A stretch of DNA of 64,000 nt from contig JBNAVT010000001.1 in assembly GCA_049700215.1 (NCBI GenBank), forward strand, positions 1-64,000, written 5' to 3'. The position numbers were made by a program, and so were the translations under genes. The notes under the pieces are model-generated. The model was not told the origin of the DNA and made no database searches. It worked only from the letters and a program-made list of their open reading frames with translations. This document shows positions 4,125 to 16,373 of the stretch, in pieces. Each line of letters begins with the position of its first letter. Position 1 is the stretch's first letter. The DNA is from Thermoproteota archaeon. GTDB taxonomy: Archaea > Thermoproteota > EX4484-205 > JAAOZP01.

Positions 4125-5381
4125 TTAAACAGTGTAGGTTTCTCCAAGCTCCGGGGCTACTGCGTCGAGCCCAAGGCGGTTTCTAGCGTATTCCGCGAGT
4201 TTCTCACAGTTATCTGAATCACCGTGGACCATGAAGGTTTTCTCAGCCTTAATCCTGCCTACTAGTTTTTCAAGCTGGTTCTTCCCGCTGTGCGAGGAAA
4301 GCTCGAAATGCTTCACTTCAGCCTTGACTTTAGACAGCTTTCCGTCAACCGTCACTATCTTCTTCTCTAAGAGAAGCCTCCCAGGGGTTCCTTCAACCTG
4401 ATAACTGACGAAGGCTATTAGGTTCCTGCCTGATTTCCCAACCTCCTTAAGGTAGAAGTTGACGGGGCCTCCTTGAAGCATCCCGGCTGGCGTGACGATA
4501 ACGCCGGGCCTCTTTAAAGCCTCCTCTCTCTGCTTCTGCGTGGTTATCCATGTTACTTGTCTAGCTGCTTTCTCGAGAAGATCAGGGTATGAGAGCCACT
4601 CTGGGAAATCGAAAAGTATTTCCGTAACAGTCCTAGCCATGCCATCGTAATACACGTTGTGGGGGAAACCGTGTTTAGCAAGTATCGTTATCACTTCCTG
4701 AGATCTCCCCAGCCCGAAGGCTGGGACTAGCGCTATGCCGCCTCTTTCAACAGTTTCCCCAAGCTTTCTGACGAACTTCTTCTCAACCTCCTCTCTAGGC
4801 GGATGATTCTTGTTCGCGTAAGTGCTTTCAACTATCGCTACGTCAACCGGAGGATAATCAGTATAGGCGCCTTTAAGCAGGGTTGTTTCAATCGTGTTAA
4901 TGTCTCCTGTGTAAAGTATCCTCTTCCCGTCGAGCTCAAGCAGCACCTGTCCTCCTCCTGGAGTATGGCCTGCTGACATGAAGACGAGCTTGAAACCGTT
5001 TCGGGAGAACTCCTCCTGGTAACCAAGCTTTCTCGACCTGCTTACGAACCTATCTACTTCAGGAATTTCAAACGGAACAGTTTCCTTAGATACTCTTATG
5101 AAGTCCAGCAGTATTAGTTTAGCCAGTGGCGCTGTTAAACTTGTTAGGAATGCTTCTCTCTCCCCGCTTATGAAAAATATGGGTGCGGCTCCGACGTGAT
5201 CCAAATGAGCGTGCGTTATGATTATACTGTCTACTTCTCTAGGCGGGATGTGCATGGGGTATTTAACCTGCCTCCCGGAGAGCATTACTCCCGCATCTAG
5301 GAGAAGGCGTTTCTCCCTACCCGCCAGGTAAATAGCGGATCTCCCTACTTCACGTACTCCGCCAAGAAATTTTATAATCAT
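4125..5381 (-). CDS. Metallo-beta-lactamase/beta-CASP ribonuclease (aCPSF-family)
   Basis: THAHLDHVG, AGHTPG, YTGD, ESTY, SSHSG, VHGD motifs. Confidence 0.9.
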   Translation of the reverse strand: MIIKFLGGVREVGRSAIYLAGREKRLLLDAGVMLSGRQVKYPMHIPPREVDSIIITHAHLDHVGAAPIFFISGEREAFLTSLTAPLAKLILLDFIRVSKETVPFEIPEVDRFVSRSRKLGYQEEFSRNGFKLVFMSAGHTPGGGQVLLELDGKRILYTGDINTIETTLLKGAYTDYPPVDVAIVESTYANKNHPPREEVEKKFVRKLGETVERGGIALVPAFGLGRSQEVITILAKHGFPHNVYYDGMARTVTEILFDFPEWLSYPDLLEKAARQVTWITTQKQREEALKRPGVIVTPAGMLQGGPVNFYLKEVGKSGRNLIAFVSYQVEGTPGRLLLEKKIVTVDGKLSKVKAEVKHFELSSHSGKNQLEKLVGRIKAEKTFMVHGDSDNCEKLAEYARNRLGLDAVAPELGETYTV

Positions 5382-7093: not shown

Positions 7094-7519
7094 CTATTCC
7101 TTCTCCACAGAACTTTCTTTAATGAAATCGTTATATATTTCACTCACCTTCTCGGCTGCAAGCCCGCTTCCTTCTATAACACCGTTTTCAGTAACCCTTA
7201 TTCTGTTCATAACTATTATGACGCCTGCTTCCTCATTATACTGAACCATCTTCGGGAAGACTCTTTCTATTCTTTCAGCAAGTTTTCTCAAATCAAGTAT
7301 CGCAGTTCTCACCTCTATTCTCTTAACATCGTTCCCGTTAAGTATTGCCTTAGGAATCTTCCTTCCTCCTTTCAACTCCACTTCGTTCAAAACAACTGAA
7401 AAAGTATCAATGTCCAGTGAAGCTAAGACGCCTAGGATCTCTTCACCACCCTGAGTGACCACTGCAACCTTCTTGCCTATCAAACGATTAACCTCTGTCG
7501 TGAACCCTGTTCTCATCAT
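7094..7519 (-). CDS. Sm-like protein SmAP3 (Lsm with C-terminal domain)
   Basis: Sm1/Sm2 N-terminus plus ERVFPKMVQY..IRVTENGV.EGSG.AAE C-terminal domain typical of crenarchaeal SmAP3. Confidence 0.88.
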   Translation of the reverse strand: MMRTGFTTEVNRLIGKKVAVVTQGGEEILGVLASLDIDTFSVVLNEVELKGGRKIPKAILNGNDVKRIEVRTAILDLRKLAERIERVFPKMVQYNEEAGVIIVMNRIRVTENGVIEGSGLAAEKVSEIYNDFIKESSVEKE

Positions 7520-7640
7520 TTTAACGTCACTTTTACAGTACACTCCCTGTTTTTAATACTTTCTGGAGTAAAAGACTTATTCTAAATCATAGCTTTTTTT
7601 CATGGCTACTTTTATTGTTCTGCAGCCACTCTTTATAGAA

Positions 7641-8585
7641 ATGAAGCAGGAAACTGTTCCGTCAGTTGCTCCCGTCAGATGCCCCGATTGCAACTCTCAG
7701 CTGGTGAACTCAGGGAACGAGCTTGTCTGCAGCAAGTGCGGCCTAGTGGTCGATTTTTTCGATAAGTATGTTGCATCCTACGATCAGGGTCAAACTCTCC
7801 AGAGTGACTCCTGCTACGGGAGCCTGATTGCGGAACACGGCTTTAAAAACGGCATCTCCAGGGTGCAGAAGAACATTTTCTACTCTGCTACTAGAAGGGA
7901 GAACGAGCTGAAATGGATAATAGACAAGATCTGTAGCAATTTCCACCTGGGGTCTTCAATAAGACAGTTCTCTCACAGTATTGGTTTAGCTCTGCTGCAT
8001 AATTCTAAAAGCAGAAAGAACAATCTGACAGCGGTTGCAACGTACTCTGTAGTCAGTGCAGCAAGATCATGCGATTTAAACATTGCTCCTCATTATAAGA
8101 AGATCCAAGCGTATCTGCGGAGCATAGGTTTTAAAATAAGGCCGAGAGACCTGTTCAATGTGATTTCAGTCGCAAGAGAGATTGGGATTGCTGAGGCAAA
8201 ATACGATATGGGTAAAACTGTCAATGAAATAATATCTCTGATGATGGCGAACAACCGCAAGCTTCAGACGCTTGGTGAGAAAGAAGCGTTTCTAAGCATT
8301 CTCAGATTAATGTCGATTAGGCTTTTCAACGATTTAAAGTCTAAACATTACTATTTTCACGGTAAAAACCCGATGATATGTTTGGCGGCAGCTATCTACG
8401 CGGCATCCAAGGAGGCTGCAGCCATGTTAAAGATTAAAAACCCTGTGACTCAGAGGGAGCTAGCAGGATACGTGGGGTACGCTGAGTACAGCGTTAGAGA
8501 AACATATGAAGAGTTTTTCGGAAAAGCTTCTCAACCTGTTAAACCATTATCCGCTGTAGAATCCTGCCGTTTAACCGTTTTGTAA
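7641..8585 (+). CDS. Divergent transcription initiation factor IIB (TFB) paralog
   Basis: Zn ribbon CPDC..CSKCGLV, GKNP..LAAAIY, TQRELA..VG..E.SVR..Y HTH. Confidence 0.8.
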   Translation: MKQETVPSVAPVRCPDCNSQLVNSGNELVCSKCGLVVDFFDKYVASYDQGQTLQSDSCYGSLIAEHGFKNGISRVQKNIFYSATRRENELKWIIDKICSNFHLGSSIRQFSHSIGLALLHNSKSRKNNLTAVATYSVVSAARSCDLNIAPHYKKIQAYLRSIGFKIRPRDLFNVISVAREIGIAEAKYDMGKTVNEIISLMMANNRKLQTLGEKEAFLSILRLMSIRLFNDLKSKHYYFHGKNPMICLAAAIYAASKEAAAMLKIKNPVTQRELAGYVGYAEYSVRETYEEFFGKASQPVKPLSAVESCRLTVL

Positions 8586-8998
8586 ACACGTTCGAATGAG
8601 AAGAATCCTTCCGGGTCACTCACATGAATCCTGCTTATAATCTCTACTGAACACTCTTCATCGTAAGATTCAGTATTGCAGCTGAACCGGACGAGTATTC
8701 CATATTCTCTGAAGAATTCCTCATCGCAAAGATTCTCTGTTAAGCGTTCCAACTCCTCCTCCAGGGTTTTCTTAAACTCAGAGAAATTGCCTTTAGAAGA
8801 ACGCATACATGCCTCCGCAATGTTTTCCACACTGTTGAAAGTATCGTTTATCAGGGAATCCGCTAAAACGAGCTTCACCCTTTGTTTTAAAAAGCCTGCT
8901 AGGAAGGTGCTTCCGGAAAGAACCATCAGGTTCACCATCAGCAGTGAAACCATGATGATCGTGGAGGCGGCTATAGGTATCAGCCACGTTTTAATCAT
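8531..8998 (-). CDS. Pilin-like/minor pilus component with N-terminal TM helix
   Basis: Hydrophobic N-terminus then soluble domain with Cys residues; last gene of a coupled operon divergent from Tad-type ATPase. Confidence 0.55.
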   Translation of the reverse strand: MIKTWLIPIAASTIIMVSLLMVNLMVLSGSTFLAGFLKQRVKLVLADSLINDTFNSVENIAEACMRSSKGNFSEFKKTLEEELERLTENLCDEEFFREYGILVRFSCNTESYDEECSVEIISRIHVSDPEGFFSFERVYKTVKRQDSTADNGLTG

Positions 8999-9378
8999 TT
9001 TTCAATGCTCACCACTATGCGCACGATATCATCACCGCTAACTCTTATTATTTGAACACGTCTAGCCTGCTGTCCACCAGGATTGTTTGAAGCCTGCTTG
9101 TTCTCCACCACTATTTTCCCATTCTTCTTGCTTAGAAGTTCTATTTCGCTCCACTCAACCCCATTCTGGTTCAGGATTCTCATGACCTCGCTAAGCATGG
9201 CCTCACCATCGCTCAGGTTTTGAAGGGGGATCCCTGCTAGGCTGCTCTCTAAAGCCAAGTCTGTTCTCACCACTTCTATTTTTTCAAACGTGGTTCTGAC
9301 GCTTTGCGAGACAATTATTATCGGTATTAGCAGAAGGATGCTCAGGGCGATTGCAATAACGCCTTCTAAAAACTCCAC
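8995..9378 (-). CDS. Pilin-like protein (minor pilin candidate)
   Basis: MEFLEGVIAIALSILLLIPIIIV: Glu at +5 followed by hydrophobic helix. Confidence 0.6.
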   Translation of the reverse strand: MEFLEGVIAIALSILLLIPIIIVSQSVRTTFEKIEVVRTDLALESSLAGIPLQNLSDGEAMLSEVMRILNQNGVEWSEIELLSKKNGKIVVENKQASNNPGGQQARRVQIIRVSGDDIVRIVVSIEK

Positions 9379-9384
9379 TCTGCC

Positions 9385-9516
9385 TCACACCCGCCCAACC
9401 AGCTCAGTGTAGGCGGAAACATTGCTTAAAGTAAGCAAAACGGCTAATGCCAGCTCTAAGACTAGTAGGAAAATTAGGAATGATGCTGATATGAAATCCA
9501 GAAGCTTGTCGCTCAT
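9385..9516 (-). CDS. 43-aa hydrophobic pilin-like peptide (not in ORF track)
   Basis: MSDKLLDFISASFLIFLLVLELALAVLLTLSNVSAYTELVGRV; ATGA overlap with upstream gene stop. Confidence 0.65.
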   Translation of the reverse strand: MSDKLLDFISASFLIFLLVLELALAVLLTLSNVSAYTELVGRV

Positions 9517-9869
9517 CGCCGGTTTAAAACAAACCCGTTGCCAGTGGTTCTCACAGCGTATGTTCCACCCGGCTCTAAAGACGTGCTGTTAAACCTGTAT
9601 TTCCAAGTCCCGTTGAGAACCAGAGTCTCCTGAATCAGCACAGTGTATTCGTCATCCTTAAGCAGGATTGAATAGTTAAACAAGGGTATTCTAGGGATGG
9701 TCAGGATGAACTCTCCCCCGTACTCCGCTGAAAGATCAGCGTATTCTCCTATTAAAAACAGGATGCTGTTAAAAACCTTGTTTAAGAAAAACGTTCTAAG
9801 ACTGTTTGCCGCGTGAAGCAGTGTAAAGCTCACTACGAGTGTTAAAGACATCCAGAGAGCATCTTTCAA
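9513..9869 (-). CDS. Pilin-like membrane-anchored protein
   Basis: N-terminal TM then beta-rich domain; frame stays open upstream to a possible CTG start after GGTGA (LNEILEEHL). Confidence 0.55.
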   Translation of the reverse strand: MKDALWMSLTLVVSFTLLHAANSLRTFFLNKVFNSILFLIGEYADLSAEYGGEFILTIPRIPLFNYSILLKDDEYTVLIQETLVLNGTWKYRFNSTSLEPGGTYAVRTTGNGFVLNRR

Positions 9870-9905
9870 ATGCTCCTCGAGAATTTCGTTCAGGCTGTTT
9901 CACCC

Positions 9906-10049
9906 CTAGCCGGTGGCAAGCAATTTAACCACACTTTCATAAATCTGCTTAAGCATGGGTATCACCCGTTCTGATAAATAGGCTATGCCCAGTCCAAGGA
10001 GTATTGCGGAGAGCAGCATTACTAGGGTTTTCTCAAGCAGGCTACTCAT
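9906..10049 (-). CDS. 47-aa Flp-like pilin candidate (not in ORF track)
   Basis: MSSLLEKTLVMLLSAILLGLGIAYLSERVIPMLKQIYESVVKLLATG preceded by GAGGGGTG RBS. Confidence 0.65.
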   Translation of the reverse strand: MSSLLEKTLVMLLSAILLGLGIAYLSERVIPMLKQIYESVVKLLATG

Positions 10050-10130
10050 AGCCACCCCTCTCCTTGAGCCGCCTAGCCTCTACGTTCATTTTTAAATTCA
10101 AGCTATACTAGCGTCTCAAGCCTTATAACC

Positions 10131-10144
10131 GCCAACGGGTTGGC
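10131..10144. promoter_or_regulatory. Palindrome GCCAAC-GG-GTTGGC in divergent promoter of pilus locus
   Basis: Perfect 6-bp inverted repeat next to TTATAA in the 10050-10185 intergenic region. Confidence 0.35.
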
Positions 10145-10185
10145 ATTGGAGGATAAATACGTTTTTTCACTACTCTGGTTTGGAG

Positions 10186-10335
10186 ATGATCTCCCAGGAT
10201 GATCTGCTGGTCAACGCAATACTTCAGGAGATAGAGGATTTGAAAGTGAGCATAGGGAAGTTGAACAATAAGATTCTAAATCTTGAGAAGAAGTATCGCG
10301 AGCTGAGCGAATTCGTAAGGGTTACTTCAAAATGA
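10186..10335 (+). CDS. 49-aa coiled-coil protein (not in ORF track)
   Basis: MISQDDLLVNAILQEIEDLKVSIGKLNNKILNLEKKYRELSEFVRVTSK; heptad pattern; ATGA overlap with ATPase start. Confidence 0.65.
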   Translation: MISQDDLLVNAILQEIEDLKVSIGKLNNKILNLEKKYRELSEFVRVTSK

Positions 10336-12212
10336 GCAGTATCCAACAAGGTTTCCTCCATGCTGGTTTTGAAAGAAAATGGGCTTGGAACAGTAGGGAT
10401 AAGGCCCTGCTCCTATCATACTCAGAAACCCCGGAGACAGACCCTTGGCTTATCTGTGATATTATGCATAAGCTCACGTATTTTAAGCCGGAGAAAATAC
10501 TGGTGCGTGTCAAGGACCGTTTGCTCGAAGCCCGGGAGGAATATGTTGAGCTGATGAAGGGCTTATCTGGGAAGGTTGAAAAGGAGAAGAAAGAGCTTTA
10601 CAAAAGGCTTTTAGAGGAATATGAGGAGAACAGGCTCGACTTGAATAGTGCTCGAGGAATGCTTTCTATTAGACCCTTTCATGGAAGCGTATACTCTAAG
10701 CTGTTGCTGCGTTTCCCAGCGCCTGCTGAACTTTTCACCGATCACGGTGCTCAAGGATTTGAAAAGGTTTTTCACGGGCCAAGTAGGGCTGAGCATAGCT
10801 ACGTAGTGGGGCACCTGCTATACTGTGTAGACTCTGAAAAAGGCTCCTACAGGGTTTTCTTCAAGTCTGACGATTACTTCTGGGTTGAGAAGGAGCTTTC
10901 AAAAATTCTACGCTTTGCCTACTCGACTAGAATGCTCAGAACCGGGAGGCTTAAAGACATTTTTAGCTACCGGTTTAAAGCCGGCTTACGGCTTCTGGGG
11001 GTGTTAACAAGCTGGGAAGCAGCGGAGCCGGCAAGCTCCATAGTCAGTCATGCTGTATACTCTTCTATAGGCTTGTCGAAAATATATCCGTTGGTGAACG
11101 ATAACAATGTGCAGTGTTTCTTCCTAGACGATGTTGGGGAGAGGCTTTACGTGGACCACGCCCGTTTCGGAAGGCTTAGCACGAACCTCGTGTTTAAAGA
11201 GAGGGATTTTGAAAGCCTCGTGTCCCTCGTGAAGAGAGAGTCTGGACTGAACCTGGATTACTCTAACCCCTCGATTAAAACCGCTATTGTCTTCAACAGG
11301 GTTTTGACAAGGGTTTCGATAGATATTCCTCCCCTAACGCTGGGGAGAGGCGTGTTAGATGTGCGGAAACACGTGGCGAGCGTGCTTCACCTACGGGACC
11401 TTTTGGAATCAGGATATTTCTCGGTTGAGGCTGCAGCATTCTTAATCTTCGCCATTCTTAACCGTGCTAACGTCTCTATTGTAGGAGAGCCTAGCTCCGG
11501 GAAAACCTCTCTCCTTAACTTTCTAAGCTACTTCGCTCCCTCATGGTGGCGCATAGTTCATATTGAGGATGCTCTTGAAACCCTTCCGCCCAGGGTTTTC
11601 GACCAGCATAGAGTAGTATATATTGTAGACCCTTTTGAAAGCAGGGGGAGAAGCGATACTAAGACGTTTGAAATAGTTAAGAGTCTGCACAGGACTCCCT
11701 CCTACCTTATTCTGGGAGAGATTCAAACCGGGAGCCATGTTAAGGCTATGTTCCGCGCTGTCTCAGCCGGCCTAAGGATAATGCATACTGCGCACGCCTC
11801 GTCCAGCAAGGGCTTTGTTAAAAGGCTTGTAGACGTTCATAACATTCCGAGGATACTGGTTTCAGAGCTTGATCTAATAATAGTTATGAAGAGGATTGAG
11901 GCGAATAATTTTGTTAAAAGGTTTATCGGGGAAATAGCTGGGATAAGTGGGAATTCAAGCATCACCGAAATTTTTTCAAGACGTACCGCCACGGATGAGT
12001 TGTGCTGCTACCCTGGGCTAGAAGCCTCAAGGCTTTTCGAGAAACTAGCTTGCTTAAACTATGTCGATGAGAAAAATCTTTACGAGGAATATGAAGACAT
12101 TTTAAGAGTGGTTGATAAGAACCTTTTTTCAGATAATTTCACCGTTAAAAGGCTTGTTCAGAAAATCCATATGGAAATGCTTGGGAAGTCTGGGGGAGGT
12201 TTTCAAAAGTGA
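10332..12212 (+). CDS. Type IV/Tad pilus assembly ATPase (VirB11/CpaF family)
   Basis: Walker A GEPSSGKT, Asp box HIEDALE, LILGEI, His box MHTAHA. Confidence 0.9.
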   Translation: MSSIQQGFLHAGFERKWAWNSRDKALLLSYSETPETDPWLICDIMHKLTYFKPEKILVRVKDRLLEAREEYVELMKGLSGKVEKEKKELYKRLLEEYEENRLDLNSARGMLSIRPFHGSVYSKLLLRFPAPAELFTDHGAQGFEKVFHGPSRAEHSYVVGHLLYCVDSEKGSYRVFFKSDDYFWVEKELSKILRFAYSTRMLRTGRLKDIFSYRFKAGLRLLGVLTSWEAAEPASSIVSHAVYSSIGLSKIYPLVNDNNVQCFFLDDVGERLYVDHARFGRLSTNLVFKERDFESLVSLVKRESGLNLDYSNPSIKTAIVFNRVLTRVSIDIPPLTLGRGVLDVRKHVASVLHLRDLLESGYFSVEAAAFLIFAILNRANVSIVGEPSSGKTSLLNFLSYFAPSWWRIVHIEDALETLPPRVFDQHRVVYIVDPFESRGRSDTKTFEIVKSLHRTPSYLILGEIQTGSHVKAMFRAVSAGLRIMHTAHASSSKGFVKRLVDVHNIPRILVSELDLIIVMKRIEANNFVKRFIGEIAGISGNSSITEIFSRRTATDELCCYPGLEASRLFEKLACLNYVDEKNLYEEYEDILRVVDKNLFSDNFTVKRLVQKIHMEMLGKSGGGFQK

Positions 12213-12775
12213 TCCTGCAAGGGCTTTTAAAGAAAATGTTCAACAATGAGGATAAGCATGCTTACGAGTTAATGACTCCAATCATAGCTGAAATAATGAT
12301 AGCACAATCCGCCTATAACAATCTTTATAGGACTATTCTCGACGTTTCAAGCAAAAACTATGAGGAGGTTTCCAGGGTCTTGCGCTATTGTCTTGAACAG
12401 AATCTGAACGGCGTGGGCGTTCAGAAATCGCTGAACACGGTTCTCCGGGAACACCCGGATCTGCTCAACACGATTATCCATGTGGTTCAAAACACTCCTA
12501 AGCGGGGAGTCGACCCCGAGGAGACACTGATGTTCTTCAGGATCCTTGAGTCGAAAGCCAGGATGAAATACCGTGAGTACACGTTAAAGCTGAACTCCAT
12601 AGTTTCCGTTTTCTTCTTCTACGTGTTTCTTGTCCCAACACCGGTAATACTGGCCTCCGGGTTTTCGCCGGGGGCTTCAACAGTCTTATTCTCAGCGTTC
12701 CTCATCGTAAGCATGATTGTGTTCAGGTTCTTCTTCAACAAGATTGGTAGGATTAGAGGTGTCCTACTGGGTTGA
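12209..12775 (+). CDS. TadB/GspF-like membrane platform protein
   Basis: Helical soluble domain plus two C-terminal TM helices, coupled to ATPase. Confidence 0.6.
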   Translation: MILQGLLKKMFNNEDKHAYELMTPIIAEIMIAQSAYNNLYRTILDVSSKNYEEVSRVLRYCLEQNLNGVGVQKSLNTVLREHPDLLNTIIHVVQNTPKRGVDPEETLMFFRILESKARMKYREYTLKLNSIVSVFFFYVFLVPTPVILASGFSPGASTVLFSAFLIVSMIVFRFFFNKIGRIRGVLLG

Positions 12776-13569
12776 GGAAAATACACTTGTTTCTAGTAAT
12801 AGGTTTCGGGTCACTTGCCTTTTTAATGCCTGTTTTAAAGCTTAAACCGTACGTCGCATGCTCGATACAACTCTTAGTCTACACGCTCATACTGACCCGG
12901 AGGAGGAGAGACGATGGTGAAAACCTGGCGGAGACCGTTGACTTAACGCTAATAGGGAGGTTGGCAGACTGTCCTGAAAACCTGAACCTTGAAAGCTCAG
13001 TTTTCAAAACCCTGTCAGACTCGGATCTTGAAACAGAGTACCGTGGTCTCTTCGAGAAAGCTGCGCTCAGAAGCATAAATGGGCACCCGGTGGTGGAAAC
13101 CTTAATCTCACATTCCAGTGGGCTTGGTAAAACAGGAAGGCTTCTACTCATGCTTGCTTCAAGCCTTTTCGCCAAGGATGCCGTCTCCGCTAAAAGAATT
13201 CTGAAGAGCTATGTGTTTCTACTCAGGGAAAACGAGGCTTTGAAGAACGAGAGGCGGACCCTGTTTTCAGAAGCCAGGTTCAGGGCTAGAATAATGCTTA
13301 TAGTAAGCGCCTCTTTAATGGGTTTCCTCTCTGCTGCAACCCCTGTTCTCAACGCTTTCTCAACTTTTTCACCTACACCTGTTTTCCAGAGCGATCCCTC
13401 GCAGCTTCTCTCTCTCTTCCTCTACGTGTTAAGCATCTCCATACTCGTCCACCGCTCCCTAGCCTTCAGAACGCTTGCTAAAACAATGTTTTACTCAGCT
13501 TTCAGCTTCGCAGCATCATTCCTGGTTTTCAACAGTATGATCAGCAGCTTCGCGGCGCAAGTCGGCTGA
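12772..13569 (+). CDS. TadC/GspF-like membrane platform protein
   Basis: 2 N-terminal TM, helical domain with basic ERR..EARFRAR, 3 C-terminal TM. Confidence 0.6.
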   Translation: MRKIHLFLVIGFGSLAFLMPVLKLKPYVACSIQLLVYTLILTRRRRDDGENLAETVDLTLIGRLADCPENLNLESSVFKTLSDSDLETEYRGLFEKAALRSINGHPVVETLISHSSGLGKTGRLLLMLASSLFAKDAVSAKRILKSYVFLLRENEALKNERRTLFSEARFRARIMLIVSASLMGFLSAATPVLNAFSTFSPTPVFQSDPSQLLSLFLYVLSISILVHRSLAFRTLAKTMFYSAFSFAASFLVFNSMISSFAAQVG

Positions 13570-13613
13570 AGCCATTGGCGCTTAAATTGTTTGAGAATAC
13601 TGTATTTATCGGG

Positions 13614-13817
13614 TTGACGAGAATCTGGAAAACCAGGTTGAAGGCGTCGCAGCTCATTGAGGAGGGTCTGCTGATAGTGTTAGCCTTAGTCATGCTAGGG
13701 GCCGTCTTCGGAGTCTCCAGGCAAATCGTGGACAACATATCCGACTTCTTCAACTCTCTAATAGAGGAAGTGGGCAGTCTGGGTCAAAGCCTATTCGGCT
13801 GGCTGCTGCCTAAGTAA
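13614..13817 (+). CDS. Small Flp-like major pilin with class III signal peptide
   Basis: Basic leader KTRLKA / SQLIEEGLLIVLALVM (Q+2, E+5); 56-aa mature form; TATA-like CTTAAAT about 30 nt upstream. Confidence 0.7.
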   Translation: MTRIWKTRLKASQLIEEGLLIVLALVMLGAVFGVSRQIVDNISDFFNSLIEEVGSLGQSLFGWLLPK

Positions 13818-15622
13818 TGGCTGGCGGCAAGAATAGAAAGTGGGACCCGACATACATGATCGTAGCCATAGTACTGCTGATAAGCGTGTTGAAAAACGCT
13901 TCAAGCCCCCAGTTTTTTTCAAGCCTCTCCTCACCGGGGGTTGTTCAAACAGTCTCCCTGCTAATCCTGCTACTCCCAGTGTTTCTCCTCCTTTTTCACA
14001 AGCGGTCGAGCCTTGTTCAACACTTGTCTTTCAGAGAAAGCGATGATTACTTCGTCGCGAAAACGGGTTCGTCGGAGCTTGTGATAGGAGCGGTTTCAAT
14101 ACTTCCAGAGGAGGGTTCTGATAGGATCGGAGCCGGGGAGGAGGACTTCTACATCAGGACCAGGGGCCTTGTTAACGGGCTTCTTAAAGCAGGTGTCTCA
14201 ATAACGTTTGTGACCCACATGCTTCCCTCGGGAAACCCTGACGAGGATGCTCTCCTCGCCCAGCTGCTTGTGGTCAGCAGGGAAATAGGGCGGGGAGGGG
14301 TTGAGGAAGCGGTGAAAATGCTTGGAACAGATTTTGAAAAGATAAGATCTGTCTACAACACTGTTTTCCCCGGGTTAAAGCTCGTCAGGCTGAGGGGGAA
14401 GGACCTGCTTAAATACTTGAGGCGGATCCTGGTGGATGATTCCGTTATTCAGAGGGTTAAGGCAGATGACTCTGTTAAGCTTCTCACACCCCACATGCCT
14501 GACGATGAGCTCTGTTTCCTATCGTCCTCCTACAGGCCTTCGGCGGATCCTGGTGAAAACAGGGAGATCATTAGCCTCGGGTCGATTGTTTTCAACGGTT
14601 CAAAGATCATTCCTTTTAGGCTGGAGGCAGACAAGTTTAAGAAGCATATGGCTGTCTACGGTTCAACGGGATCCGGTAAGACGACAACTGTAAAGCATGT
14701 TTTAAGGGAGCTCGCTCGCCTCAAATACCCTTTTATGGTTCTAGACTGGCATAACGAGTACAGGCGTCTGGCTGAGGAGCTAAACGGCATTGTTTTTTCA
14801 CCCGGTTCTTTCTCCATAGACATACTTAACCCGATTGAGGCGAACAGCCTGTCTGAGCACGTAGCCATAGTTACAGATATTTTCGACCAGATATACGGCT
14901 TCACACCCTCCCAGTCATACATGTTTAGAGAGGTGCTTCTTCAAACACTCACGGAAAAAGAGCTCGGTATACCCGTTTCAAGCCTTCTCCGGGGGCTTGT
15001 AGAAACTTTGGAGAGGTGGAGCATTAAATCGTTCTACGAGAACGAGACAAAGTTCGCGCTTCTAAGAAGGCTGAGGCCCTTGGTAACCGGGCAGAGCGGG
15101 GAAATATTCTGCAACACGAGTAGGCTGGTGAAGATCGAAGACATTATAGATAGGAACGTGGTTTTTGAGCTGGGGGACATAGTTGAGGTGGATGTTCGTA
15201 AGCTGGTTTCGCTCTTCATCCTGGCGCTTCTCTACGAGTTCAGGGTTAAAAACGCAAGTACTAGGGGACACTTCACCGTGGTTGAGGAGGCGCATAATAT
15301 TCTGCCGTACAGGAGGCGTGACTCTCCACCGGGGATTGCTGAAAAACTTTTCTTGGAGATGAGAAAGTTTAACGAGAGCCTGATACTTGTGTCGCAGTTC
15401 CCGTCGCAAATCTCCCCTGAAATAGTTAAGTCCACAAGCCTGAAAATATCCCACAGGATATGCGAGGGGGAGGAGTCAAGGGTTCTGACAGACATAATGG
15501 GTCTTTCCCCCGGGGACTATGAGCTTCTTAAGAGGCAGATGCCGGGATACGGGTTCCTGACGGCGGAGGGCTTTCCCAAACCCGTGTTTTTCACCACGGG
15601 GCTTAACGGAAAAGGAAGCTAA
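13817..15622 (+). CDS. Membrane-anchored HerA/FtsK/VirB4-like ATPase (DUF87)
   Basis: Two N-terminal TM helices; VYGSTGSGKT, LDWHNEY, VVEEAH, EMRKF, VSQFP. Confidence 0.85.
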   Translation: MAGGKNRKWDPTYMIVAIVLLISVLKNASSPQFFSSLSSPGVVQTVSLLILLLPVFLLLFHKRSSLVQHLSFRESDDYFVAKTGSSELVIGAVSILPEEGSDRIGAGEEDFYIRTRGLVNGLLKAGVSITFVTHMLPSGNPDEDALLAQLLVVSREIGRGGVEEAVKMLGTDFEKIRSVYNTVFPGLKLVRLRGKDLLKYLRRILVDDSVIQRVKADDSVKLLTPHMPDDELCFLSSSYRPSADPGENREIISLGSIVFNGSKIIPFRLEADKFKKHMAVYGSTGSGKTTTVKHVLRELARLKYPFMVLDWHNEYRRLAEELNGIVFSPGSFSIDILNPIEANSLSEHVAIVTDIFDQIYGFTPSQSYMFREVLLQTLTEKELGIPVSSLLRGLVETLERWSIKSFYENETKFALLRRLRPLVTGQSGEIFCNTSRLVKIEDIIDRNVVFELGDIVEVDVRKLVSLFILALLYEFRVKNASTRGHFTVVEEAHNILPYRRRDSPPGIAEKLFLEMRKFNESLILVSQFPSQISPEIVKSTSLKISHRICEGEESRVLTDIMGLSPGDYELLKRQMPGYGFLTAEGFPKPVFFTTGLNGKGS

Positions 15623-16298: not shown

Positions 16299-16373
16299 GC
16301 TCCGATGGTGTAGCCCGGTCAAGCATACGAGCCTCTCGAGCTCGGGGCCCGGGTTCAAATCCCGGTCGGAGCA
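16299..16373 (+). tRNA. tRNA-Glu(CTC)
   Basis: GCTCCGA acceptor, CGAGC-CTCTCGA-GCTCG anticodon arm, GGTTCAAATCC. Confidence 0.95.

Follow-up and report, generated by a model that had tools for sequence, protein, structure and literature searches.

A type IV pilus-like locus of the Thermoproteota that joins a CedD-family ATPase to a small pilin and a TFB paralog

What is the function of an archaeal locus in which pilus-like genes, a membrane-anchored ATPase and a paralog of the transcription factor TFB stand together? The locus in question is a block of twelve genes at positions 7602–15622 of a 64 000-nucleotide stretch of DNA, here called the window, from a Thermoproteota archaeon (GenBank assembly GCA_049700215.1, contig JBNAVT010000001.1, positions 1 to 64 000, forward strand). 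Its close relatives are metagenome-assembled genomes (MAGs) that NCBI names Candidatus Brockarchaeota. The original prediction was that the locus serves competence or cell-to-cell DNA import with a different architecture from that of the Sulfolobales. Our analysis upholds this as a well-founded hypothesis, on the strength of a relationship to the DNA import protein CedD and of linkage that is conserved among relatives. The parts of the locus, and the fact that their coupling is conserved, speak for a filament machine that is physically or functionally tied to a CedD-type motor. To the fuller reading, in which the locus is a divergent type IV pilus (T4P)-like filament machine coupled to a CedD-type DNA translocase with a dedicated TFB, and acts in the import or exchange of DNA, we give an even chance. 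That the motor would move DNA we infer from the genetics of CedD in two species of Sulfolobales.

DNA damage induces CedD (saci_0667 / SiRe_1715), without which S. acidocaldarius and Sa. islandicus cannot import DNA, and cedD mutants that have lost import still aggregate (PMC11823120; PMC11868833), so that Ups pili must still form in them. The 601-amino acid ATPase encoded at the right-hand end of our locus belongs with this protein. It had been described at the outset as a membrane-anchored, HerA-like ATPase; the anchors and the HerA-type domain are present, but its closest characterised relative proves to be CedD, rather than CedB or HerA. A DUF87/HerA domain (E = 5.1e-17) contains the Walker A sequence GSTGSGKT. 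It is preceded by transmembrane (TM) helices at about residues 12–30 and 37–60 and by an alpha/beta N-terminal domain, and this order of two helices, N-terminal domain and HerA/VirB4-type ATPase domain matches the architecture of CedD. The NCBIfam CedD model (NF053655) matches the protein with E = 2.4e-50 (171.7 bits) over model positions 199–521, while HerA models reach at most 46.9 bits against a cut-off of 800 and CedB 14.1 bits. When the whole genome was scanned with the CedD model the locus ATPase was the best match at 171.5 bits, and the next scored 43.9. Alignment by hhalign of a Brockarchaeota profile with nine Sulfolobaceae CedD sequences gave a probability of 100% and an E value of 2.1e-61 over 496 columns; as it runs from residues 47–600 of the one to 36–537 of the other, the second TM helix and the N-terminal domain are common to both.

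A tree of the HerA superfamily leads to the same place. This was a quick IQ-TREE calculation on 29 rows, with a short search, several long branches, and support given only by the Shimodaira–Hasegawa-like approximate likelihood ratio test (SH-aLRT). A CedD clade of 16 rows (SH-aLRT 96) brings together seven locus ATPases, six Sulfolobaceae CedD proteins and CedD-like proteins from three other crenarchaeal families. CedB (3 rows), HerA (6 rows) and the other HerA-like proteins of this genome all fall outside it. An AlphaFold2 model of the protein (mean predicted local distance difference test, pLDDT, 72.7, with the ATPase domain confident) matches HerA and VirB4, with a TM-score of 0.72 on VirB4 (4ag5). 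Judged by these sequence comparisons, the 601-amino acid protein is a full-length CedD homolog, and not HerA or CedB. The HerA gene of this genome lies beside Mre11 on contig 5, and the genome also encodes a PINA ATPase. Since the repair HerA and Mre11 are encoded there, the locus ATPase is not the end-resection helicase, which agrees with the early observation that nurA, mre11 and rad50 are missing from its surroundings.

In four related loci (L062, L063, L083 and L084) the CedD-like gene is split into one encoding the two TM helices and N-terminal domain (~184–323 amino acids) and one encoding the ATPase (~258–516 amino acids). The split genes echo reported CedB and CedD proteins that have no TM part.

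The features of the locus are as follows, with coordinates taken from a listing of open reading frames (ORFs).

7602–8585, plus strand: TFB-like gene, a full-length, divergent TFIIB paralog; likely start at the ATG at 7641
8531–8998, minus strand: p155, ends the leftward operon; N-terminal hydrophobic helix (MIKTWLIP), candidate for a minor subunit of the filament
8995–9378, minus strand: p127, N-terminal hydrophobic helix (M-x-FLEG), candidate minor subunit; from ORF and orthologs
9385–9516, minus strand: p43, membrane peptide of 43 amino acids (MSDKLLDFL); from ORF and conserved N-terminus
9513–9869, minus strand: p118, small protein, start uncertain; from ORF and orthologs
9906–10055, minus strand: p49, membrane peptide of 47–49 amino acids (MSNLLEK), first gene of the leftward operon; from ORF and orthologs
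10056–10179, no strand: divergent promoter region of 124 bp, with two conserved TATA-like boxes, CTTATAA and ATAAATA
10180–10335, plus strand: coiled-coil peptide of 51 amino acids, translationally coupled to the ATPase gene and conserved in 14 loci
10332–12212, plus strand: secretion ATPase of the FlaI/T2SSE family, 626 amino acids, with a long N-terminal region, deep-branching; from Pfam/NCBIfam and tree
12209–12775, plus strand: m188, cytoplasmic helical domain followed by two TM helices, likely T2SSF (TadB/C-type) platform protein
12772–13569, plus strand: m265, paralog of m188 with extra N-terminal TM helices, likely second platform protein
13575–13817, plus strand: short Flp-like pilin; likely start at the TTG at 13614
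13817–15622, plus strand: CedD-family membrane ATPase, 601 amino acids, two N-terminal TM helices; from NCBIfam, hhalign and tree

The twelve genes are genuine conserved genes and not chance ORFs, because they are kept across related loci. The eleven besides TFB had been predicted to form two divergent, translationally coupled operons, and the ORF listing bears this out with overlaps at six junctions. Five are of 4 nucleotides (8995–8998, 9513–9516, 10332–10335, 12209–12212 and 12772–12775), and at the sixth the stop codon of the pilin gene and the start codon of the 601-amino acid ATPase share one nucleotide in the sequence TAATG at 13817. The two TATA-like boxes between the operons are conserved in an alignment of nine orthologous intergenic regions. 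A TFB gene was correctly placed beside the pilus-like genes, and the start first given for it, 7641, is an ATG internal to the ORF. Its orientation was misread. It converges on the small-protein operon, their 3′ ends overlapping at 8531–8585, and is divergent only relative to the LSm gene (7094–7543) on its other side. As originally noted, no integrase, relaxase or other mobile-element family is found among the Pfam and NCBIfam matches of 17 window proteins, and the flanks are housekeeping in character: a beta-CASP nuclease, PAC2, LSm, an AAA_18/PRK03839-type kinase, tRNA-Glu, a transporter of the major facilitator superfamily (MFS) and the thermosome.

How general is this arrangement? The whole block from TFB to the CedD-like gene is present in 13 of 19 related loci, with 53–96% identity and the same housekeeping flanks. 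Two more are cut by contig ends, and four that are more distant have the ATPase, pilin and CedD-like genes together with the flanks, at 35–42% identity. We extended the comparison to 401 genomes of the phylum, setting the coordinates of CedD-like genes against those of pilin matches. The pilin profile matches 58 of the 401, among them 24 of the 26 genomes of the window's own order (the two misses are 70 and 80% complete), and a CedD-like protein is matched in 162 at E values up to 1e-10. In at least 46 of these 58 genomes the CedD-like gene comes directly downstream of the pilin gene on the same strand. Gene maps reveal a common architecture in families f2, f8–f11, f34, f38, f40, f46, f47 and f53. 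It begins with LSm, TFB, four or five small helix-anchored proteins (with or without an A24 peptidase) and the coiled-coil peptide (with or without a soluble protein of 130–156 amino acids), and continues with the ATPase, two membrane proteins, the pilin, the CedD-like gene, the kinase and the thermosome. To family f11, the Methanomethylicaceae, belong two closed genomes that have the locus, those of Methanosuratincola petrocarbonis LWZ-6 and M. verstraetei LCB70; both organisms are described as cultivated. The complete architecture thus spans Brockarchaeota, Methanosuratincola and at least eight other families. The HerA-like and TFB genes stay linked to the pilus genes in relatives from many families, except that families f27 and f45 (labelled Methanomethylicia by NCBI) keep TFB but have no CedD-like gene in the locus. 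The locus is chromosomal and vertically inherited; it is widespread and ancient, and not particular to this genome.

In the reduced loci of f27 and f45 (L066, L067, L069 and L071) the small-protein operon is missing, and TFB, the ATPase, a single membrane protein and the pilin stand in that order, with TFB immediately before the ATPase and on its strand. The soluble protein of 130–156 amino acids mentioned above is helical and lies between the coiled-coil peptide and the ATPase (L062:13325–13771, L083:4263–4733 and L084:5498–5896); it is not found in the window, and it has only weak Pfam matches of coiled-coil type. One genome, G192 (57% complete), has two pairs of pilin and CedD-like genes, on contigs 12 and 17, where either a mixed bin or a duplication is possible, and the CedD-like gene on contig 18 of G023 has one in-frame TGA. 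The 21 sequencing runs listed are all of DNA and mostly labelled as hot-spring metagenomes, the habitat being known from these labels alone.

VirB4 is thought to dislocate VirB2 from the membrane, and so close an association of pilin and motor raises the possibility that the CedD-type ATPase works on the filament and not on DNA, extracting or dislocating pilin in the manner of VirB4 on VirB2, or serving as a retraction motor. Its gene is translationally coupled to that of the pilin and comes directly after it in at least 46 of the 58 pilin-positive genomes; its fold matches VirB4 as well as HerA; Pfam and NCBIfam scans find no DNA channel protein in the locus; and archaea are reported to encode no PilT (PMC4858521, main text) that might otherwise retract a filament. 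Yet in the only two genetic studies the cedD mutants lost DNA import while their pili still formed, the cedD gene of Sulfolobaceae has no adjoining pilin gene, and in f27 and f45 the pilin and assembly genes persist with no CedD-like ATPase in the locus. This is the main rival to a DNA translocase, and we think it unlikely. The alternatives of adhesion, protein secretion and a Ced/Ted-type secretion system, considered below, are less likely still.

The pilin itself is the best conserved protein of the locus, with 55–60% identity where the two ATPases have 35–42%. From its likely start, the TTG at 13614, the gene encodes an 11-amino acid leader, MTRIWKTRLKA, and then a mature protein of ~56 amino acids that begins SQLIEEGLL, with glutamate at +5. 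In an alignment of 14 pilin orthologs the sequence SQLIEEGLL.VLALVM.GAVFG is invariant in all 14, with K/R-[AG] just before it and a hydrophobic helix. By motif and size this is a class-III, Flp-like prepilin, with cleavage by a peptidase predicted. An A24 prepilin peptidase heads the leftward operon in the related locus L063 (Pfam E = 6.6e-10; 39.8 bits against a cut-off of 26.5), a similar protein of 196 amino acids is found in the leftward operon of L023, and two A24 peptidase genes lie elsewhere in the present genome. The family is a small one: at E values up to 1e-3 the pilin profile finds just 15 cluster representatives among 1.84 billion proteins. No Flp or other pilin family occurs among its Pfam matches at E values up to 0.1, and one distant ortholog (L066) matches the archaeal Pilin_N family at 0.015.

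Each of the five minus-strand proteins starts with a hydrophobic helix, and the N-termini are conserved: MSNLLEK in p49, MNEILEEHLKD in p118 (of relatives), MSDKLLDFL in p43, M.FLEG in p127 and MIKTWLIP in p155. Orthologs of p155 are present in all 13 complete Brockarchaeota loci, and p43 was found by tblastn in nine of the 13 and missed in four. Without the initiator methionine, two of the five share the register x-x-L-[LI]-E-[EK] with the mature pilin, which suggests, as a matter of sequence, that they may be leaderless minor subunits. Among 24 small proteins taken from five lineages there is no Pfam match to a pilin family under 0.01, and the five small proteins, m188 and m265 have no match to any Pfam or NCBIfam family. 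Since no family matches them, the terms pilin-like and TadB/C-like are assignments from topology, motifs and weak profile matches. Five pilin-like genes and a Flp-like pilin had been proposed; what stands is five genes with an N-terminal helix, and a pilin with the expected leader motif, glutamate and size, but neither finds support from a pilin family model, that of Flp included. The start of p118 is uncertain (an inner TTG, or a non-standard start), because orthologs start eight codons upstream with ATG where the window (9869–9905) has CTG, with a TGA two codons earlier.

A short, highly conserved pilin accompanied by several small helix-anchored subunits is reminiscent of pseudopilins, and no subunit of the size of an adhesin is encoded in the window. 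The locus might then encode a pseudopilus like that of type II secretion systems, which would export protein or some other macromolecule and to which the second ATPase would be an accessory motor. We consider this distinctly improbable, given that there is no candidate cargo or secretin-like gene and that, in the clade of the second ATPase, the only members tested so far move DNA.

The assembly ATPase of 626 amino acids was first called a VirB11/CpaF protein. It does belong to the T2SSE family (Pfam E = 7.2e-12; 45.1 bits against a cut-off of 24.9), but the NCBIfam model that fits it best is FlaI (3.1e-32; 112 bits, the cut-off being 550), and VirB11 reaches only 5e-15. We placed it in a quick maximum-likelihood tree of 30 sequences, rooted on PINA, with a short search and some long branches. 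Nine locus ATPases group together in a clade of their own (SH-aLRT 100). Its sister clade (97) takes in every one of the 14 ordinary T4P and archaellum ATPases sampled, which came from five other genomes and from contig 11 of the present one. As it lies outside the ordinary clade, the locus ATPase is not an ortholog of the Ups-, Aap- or Arl-type ATPases, and the locus does not match a characterised clade of adhesion pili. A further idea, that it is the UpsE ortholog relocated in the Sulfolobales, was rejected, both of the Sulfolobaceae T4P ATPases sampled (from one genome) being in the ordinary clade. The ordinary ATPase of this genome belongs to a separate, canonical T4P/archaellum-like locus on contig 11, at about 46.6–51.4 kb, which encodes a two-domain FlaJ-like protein of 610 amino acids, an A24 peptidase, and an ATPase to which the FlaI model gives 350 bits.

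The two membrane proteins that follow the ATPase are likely to be TadB/C-like by sequence, as first proposed; the proposal finds weak profile matches to T2SSF but no direct Pfam match. With wide profiles the m188 family aligns with six canonical single-domain T2SSF proteins over 124 columns in the expected register (E = 4.7e-5, probability 68%), and the m265 family with canonical T2SSF proteins at E = 5e-4 (probability 32%). These supersede narrow profiles made from Brockarchaeota only, which gave probabilities of 0.2 and 7% in hhalign against the canonical FlaJ-like protein of the genome. The two families match each other (hhalign E = 9.8e-6, and 1e-3 in another comparison). Clusters similar to them in a protein language model are T2SSF for both m188 (0.92; 22 of 30) and m265 (0.93), and in L063 the m188 ortholog has a Pfam match to T2SSF with E = 0.0079. 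Profiles of the two found nothing meaningful among the sequences of solved structures. An AlphaFold2 model of m265 from an 11-row alignment (pLDDT 62.6, too poor to use) had no Foldseek match at E values up to 0.001.

These assignments bear on whether the locus is a conjugation-like system of the Ced/Ted type, derived from type IV secretion, in which the ATPase would be VirB11, the small protein a pilin of the VirB2/CedA1 type and m265 a channel of the VirB6/CedA type. The VirB11 match points that way, and TedD is itself encoded within the Ted locus of Thermoproteales, with Ted genes resembling VirB4, VirB6 and VirB2 (PMC11823120). Set against this are a FlaI score far above that of VirB11, a pilin with Glu5 behind a prepilin leader that ends in K-[A/G], the A24 peptidase encoded within the locus in relatives, the resemblance of m188 and m265 to T2SSF and not VirB6, and the failure to find CedB or VirB4 in the genome. 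Such a system is the least probable of those considered, and very much so.

What of the transcription factor? The TFB-like protein matches the Pfam TFIIB zinc ribbon (7.2e-6) and TFIIB repeat (0.004), both under the cut-off. Its family profile aligns with the canonical TFB of the genome over positions 23–312 against 9–300 (probability 98.7%, E = 4.7e-16). The genome has one canonical TFB, on contig 40, which scores 342.8 bits where the locus TFB scores 15.8. A TFB paralog flanks the ATPase in many families, and its position is kept in relatives. It is not of the TFB3 type: it aligns with canonical TFB over nearly its full length, while the TFB3-like proteins of Sulfolobaceae have 166–200 amino acids.

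In archaeal T4P loci of various kinds the regulator is most often a TFIIB homolog (PMC4858521, main text). This is in keeping with an ordinary adhesion or biofilm pilus, to which the TFB and CedD-like genes are mere neighbours in an ancient housekeeping block, the region from LSm to the thermosome being syntenic across the phylum and the CedD-like gene being missing from the f27 and f45 loci. We judge this improbable. The conservation of the pilin relative to the ATPases is far above what is usual for exposed adhesins; the CedD-like gene overlaps the pilin stop codon in the same operon; the assembly ATPase stands outside all of the ordinary pilus clades; and the genome has its canonical T4P locus elsewhere, on contig 11.

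The connection to the Ups, Ced and TFB3 genes of the Sulfolobales is stronger than was first noted, and lies in the CedD clade, the full-length alignment and a shared neighbourhood. TFB3 (saci_0665; PMC5817253; PMC6934391) activates the ups and ced genes (PMC11823120). In the Sulfolobaceae locus L089 a bona fide cedD gene is tail-to-tail with the thermosome gene, and just beyond this is a TFB-like gene encoding 187 amino acids with a zinc ribbon, followed by HisRS-like, proteasome-beta, LSm and tgtA-like genes. All nine Sulfolobaceae loci that were read (L089 and L146–L153) have the cedD, thermosome and tfb3-like genes in this order. A TFB3-like protein is matched in 36 of 41 Sulfolobaceae genomes, and in all 15 genomes common to both searches its gene is within ~6 kb of cedD, in 14 of them within 3 kb. 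The main texts of the two CedD papers of 2025 (PMC11823120; PMC11868833) do not mention this adjacency. Because TFB3 and CedD share the LSm-to-thermosome neighbourhood with the locus TFB and CedD homolog, the Sulfolobaceae pair looks like a remnant of the present locus from which the pilus-like genes have been lost. A larger claim is that the locus is the intact ancestral DNA-exchange apparatus of the Thermoproteota (TACK), with TFB3–CedD of the Sulfolobales its eroded remnant. We advance this tentatively, as possible rather than probable.

How might the machine work? On the reading of a filament machine coupled to a DNA translocase, the TFB paralog would direct or boost transcription from the divergent TATA boxes at 10056–10179. 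A prepilin peptidase, encoded elsewhere in this genome and within the locus in relatives, is predicted to cut the pilin after the K-[A/G] motif seen in its leader, so that SQLIEEG, with Glu5, would come to stand at the N-terminus. The FlaI-like ATPase and the two T2SSF-like platform proteins would polymerise the pilin into a short filament or pseudopilus, for which the five small helix-anchored proteins may be minor or priming subunits, and the filament would contact other cells or capture DNA. The CedD homolog, a putative hexamer with two TM anchors that is encoded right after the pilin, would pump the DNA across the membrane, as the genetics of CedD in Sulfolobales suggests. The locus would be the intact form of the system, and the tfb3 and cedD genes that flank the thermosome gene of Sulfolobaceae its remnants.

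Several findings weigh against a filament machine coupled to a CedD-type translocase. The match to the CedD model is far under its equivalog cut-off of 600 bits, which a control CedD from Sulfolobaceae (L089) passes with 676.2, and the identity of the ATPase domain to Sulfolobaceae CedD is ~30%. CedB was not found in the genome, which is an estimated 94.6% complete (best score 14.3 bits), and Pfam and NCBIfam scans show no CedA/VirB6- or ComEC-like channel protein in the locus, no search of the genome aimed at CedA having been made. None of the six small proteins is matched by a model of a pilin family, and the T2SSF assignment of the platform proteins is weak at probabilities of 32–68%. The loci of f27 and f45 keep TFB, ATPase, membrane protein and pilin with no CedD-like gene, so the filament part can exist without the translocase. 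As the neighbourhood is rich in conserved housekeeping genes, part of the linkage could be frozen ancestral synteny with no functional meaning. Finally, TFB3 aligns with the locus TFB over the zinc ribbon alone (34 columns, E = 1.7e-7) and better with canonical TFB (155 columns, E = 8e-9). For this reason the correspondence between the locus TFB and TFB3 is one of position, both lying between LSm and the thermosome and cedD genes, and not of specific sequence.

Some features of the flanks may be recorded here. The beta-CASP/MBL nuclease at 4125–5381 is conserved next to the locus throughout the phylum. It is without an N-terminal part, since its aCPSF1 match starts at model position 177, and it also matches the model of the type VII CRISPR protein Cas14 (204 bits against a cut-off of 800). 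A tRNA-Glu(CTC) lies at 16299–16373, between the kinase and MFS transporter genes, and the spacing of these two genes is 2–2.5 kb longer in relatives L010, L015 and L016.

The movement of DNA between archaeal cells is poorly understood outside the Sulfolobales, where the Ups pili, the Ced importer and TFB3 are scattered and where the role of CedD was recognised only in 2025. In the present locus the filament machine is united with a CedD homolog and a TFB paralog as a single module, which is conserved in several deep lineages. The locus gives CedD a candidate physical partner system and suggests how the tfb3/cedD neighbourhood of Sulfolobaceae may have arisen. With it come a mini-pilin of unusual conservation and a deep clade of secretion ATPases that had not been placed before, and it predicts DNA uptake or exchange in Brockarchaeota and Methanomethylicia, with a bearing on gene flow in hot-spring and methanogenic communities. 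Were the ancestral reading true, DNA import would be an ancestral trait that is still widespread in uncultured and newly cultured lineages, including the Brockarchaeota and the methanogenic Methanomethylicia, carried out by a hybrid machine made of type IV pilus parts and a motor of the type IV secretion (HerA/VirB4) class.

How does the locus compare with systems already described? In the literature examined CedD appears only in papers on Sulfolobales, and the main texts of these confine it to Crenarchaeota orders (PMC11823120; PMC11868833); none was found for other lineages. We found no account of pili in Methanosuratincola or of type IV pili in Brockarchaeota, and no description of the present architecture, in a survey limited to main texts; the supplementary tables of PMC4858521, PMC11823120 and PMC11868833 may bear on novelty. 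CedD of Sulfolobales and TedD resemble the locus ATPase in their two TM helices, N-terminal domain and HerA/VirB4-type domain and fall in the same clade, and Sulfolobaceae CedD also shares a neighbourhood with the thermosome gene adjacent and LSm nearby. The setting differs: the locus gene ends a T4P-like operon, whereas Sulfolobaceae cedD adjoins the thermosome gene without pilus-like genes and TedD is found with the Ted genes. The Ups/TFB3 system likewise combines a T4P machine with a factor of the TFB family, and is tied to DNA exchange. Unlike UpsE, however, the locus ATPase is outside the clade of all ordinary crenarchaeal T4P ATPases sampled; unlike TFB3, the locus TFB is full-length with cyclin repeats; and the mature pilin has ~56 amino acids where UpsA is 18 kDa.

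In their census of 2016 Makarova, Koonin and Albers set apart a subclade 4D of the Thermoproteales, in which a single operon encodes a highly divergent secretion ATPase, a TFIIB homolog and a small membrane protein that may derive from TadC; it is described as 'functionally distinct from other T4P', with no pilins, and possibly not a pilus at all (PMC4858521). By that description the f27 form of the locus has a similar order of TFB, ATPase and membrane protein. The present locus differs in having pilins and an ATPase of the HerA/CedD type, neither of which is part of the description of 4D; in the main text of that paper HerA appears only in the name of the FtsK-HerA superfamily and in the title of one reference, and never in a T4P locus. 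Two divergent ATPases of one f28 genome were considered as a Thermoproteales counterpart, which was not supported, as they are surrounded by MinD-like ATPases and pilins and not by the block of LSm, TFB and thermosome genes.

The bacterial competence pseudopilus (ComGA/GB/GC, with ComFA/ComEC) consists of a T4P-type ATPase, a platform, short and minor pilins, and a separate membrane-associated DNA motor. The motor of the locus is of the HerA/VirB4 class where that of competence is a DEAD-box helicase; there is no ComEC-like channel, and the Flp model is unmatched. The locus nevertheless shares the logic of the competence pseudopilus as generally understood, with a pilin that is Flp-like in size and has glutamate at +5. 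Its architecture is new as an arrangement, and is built from known kinds of parts.

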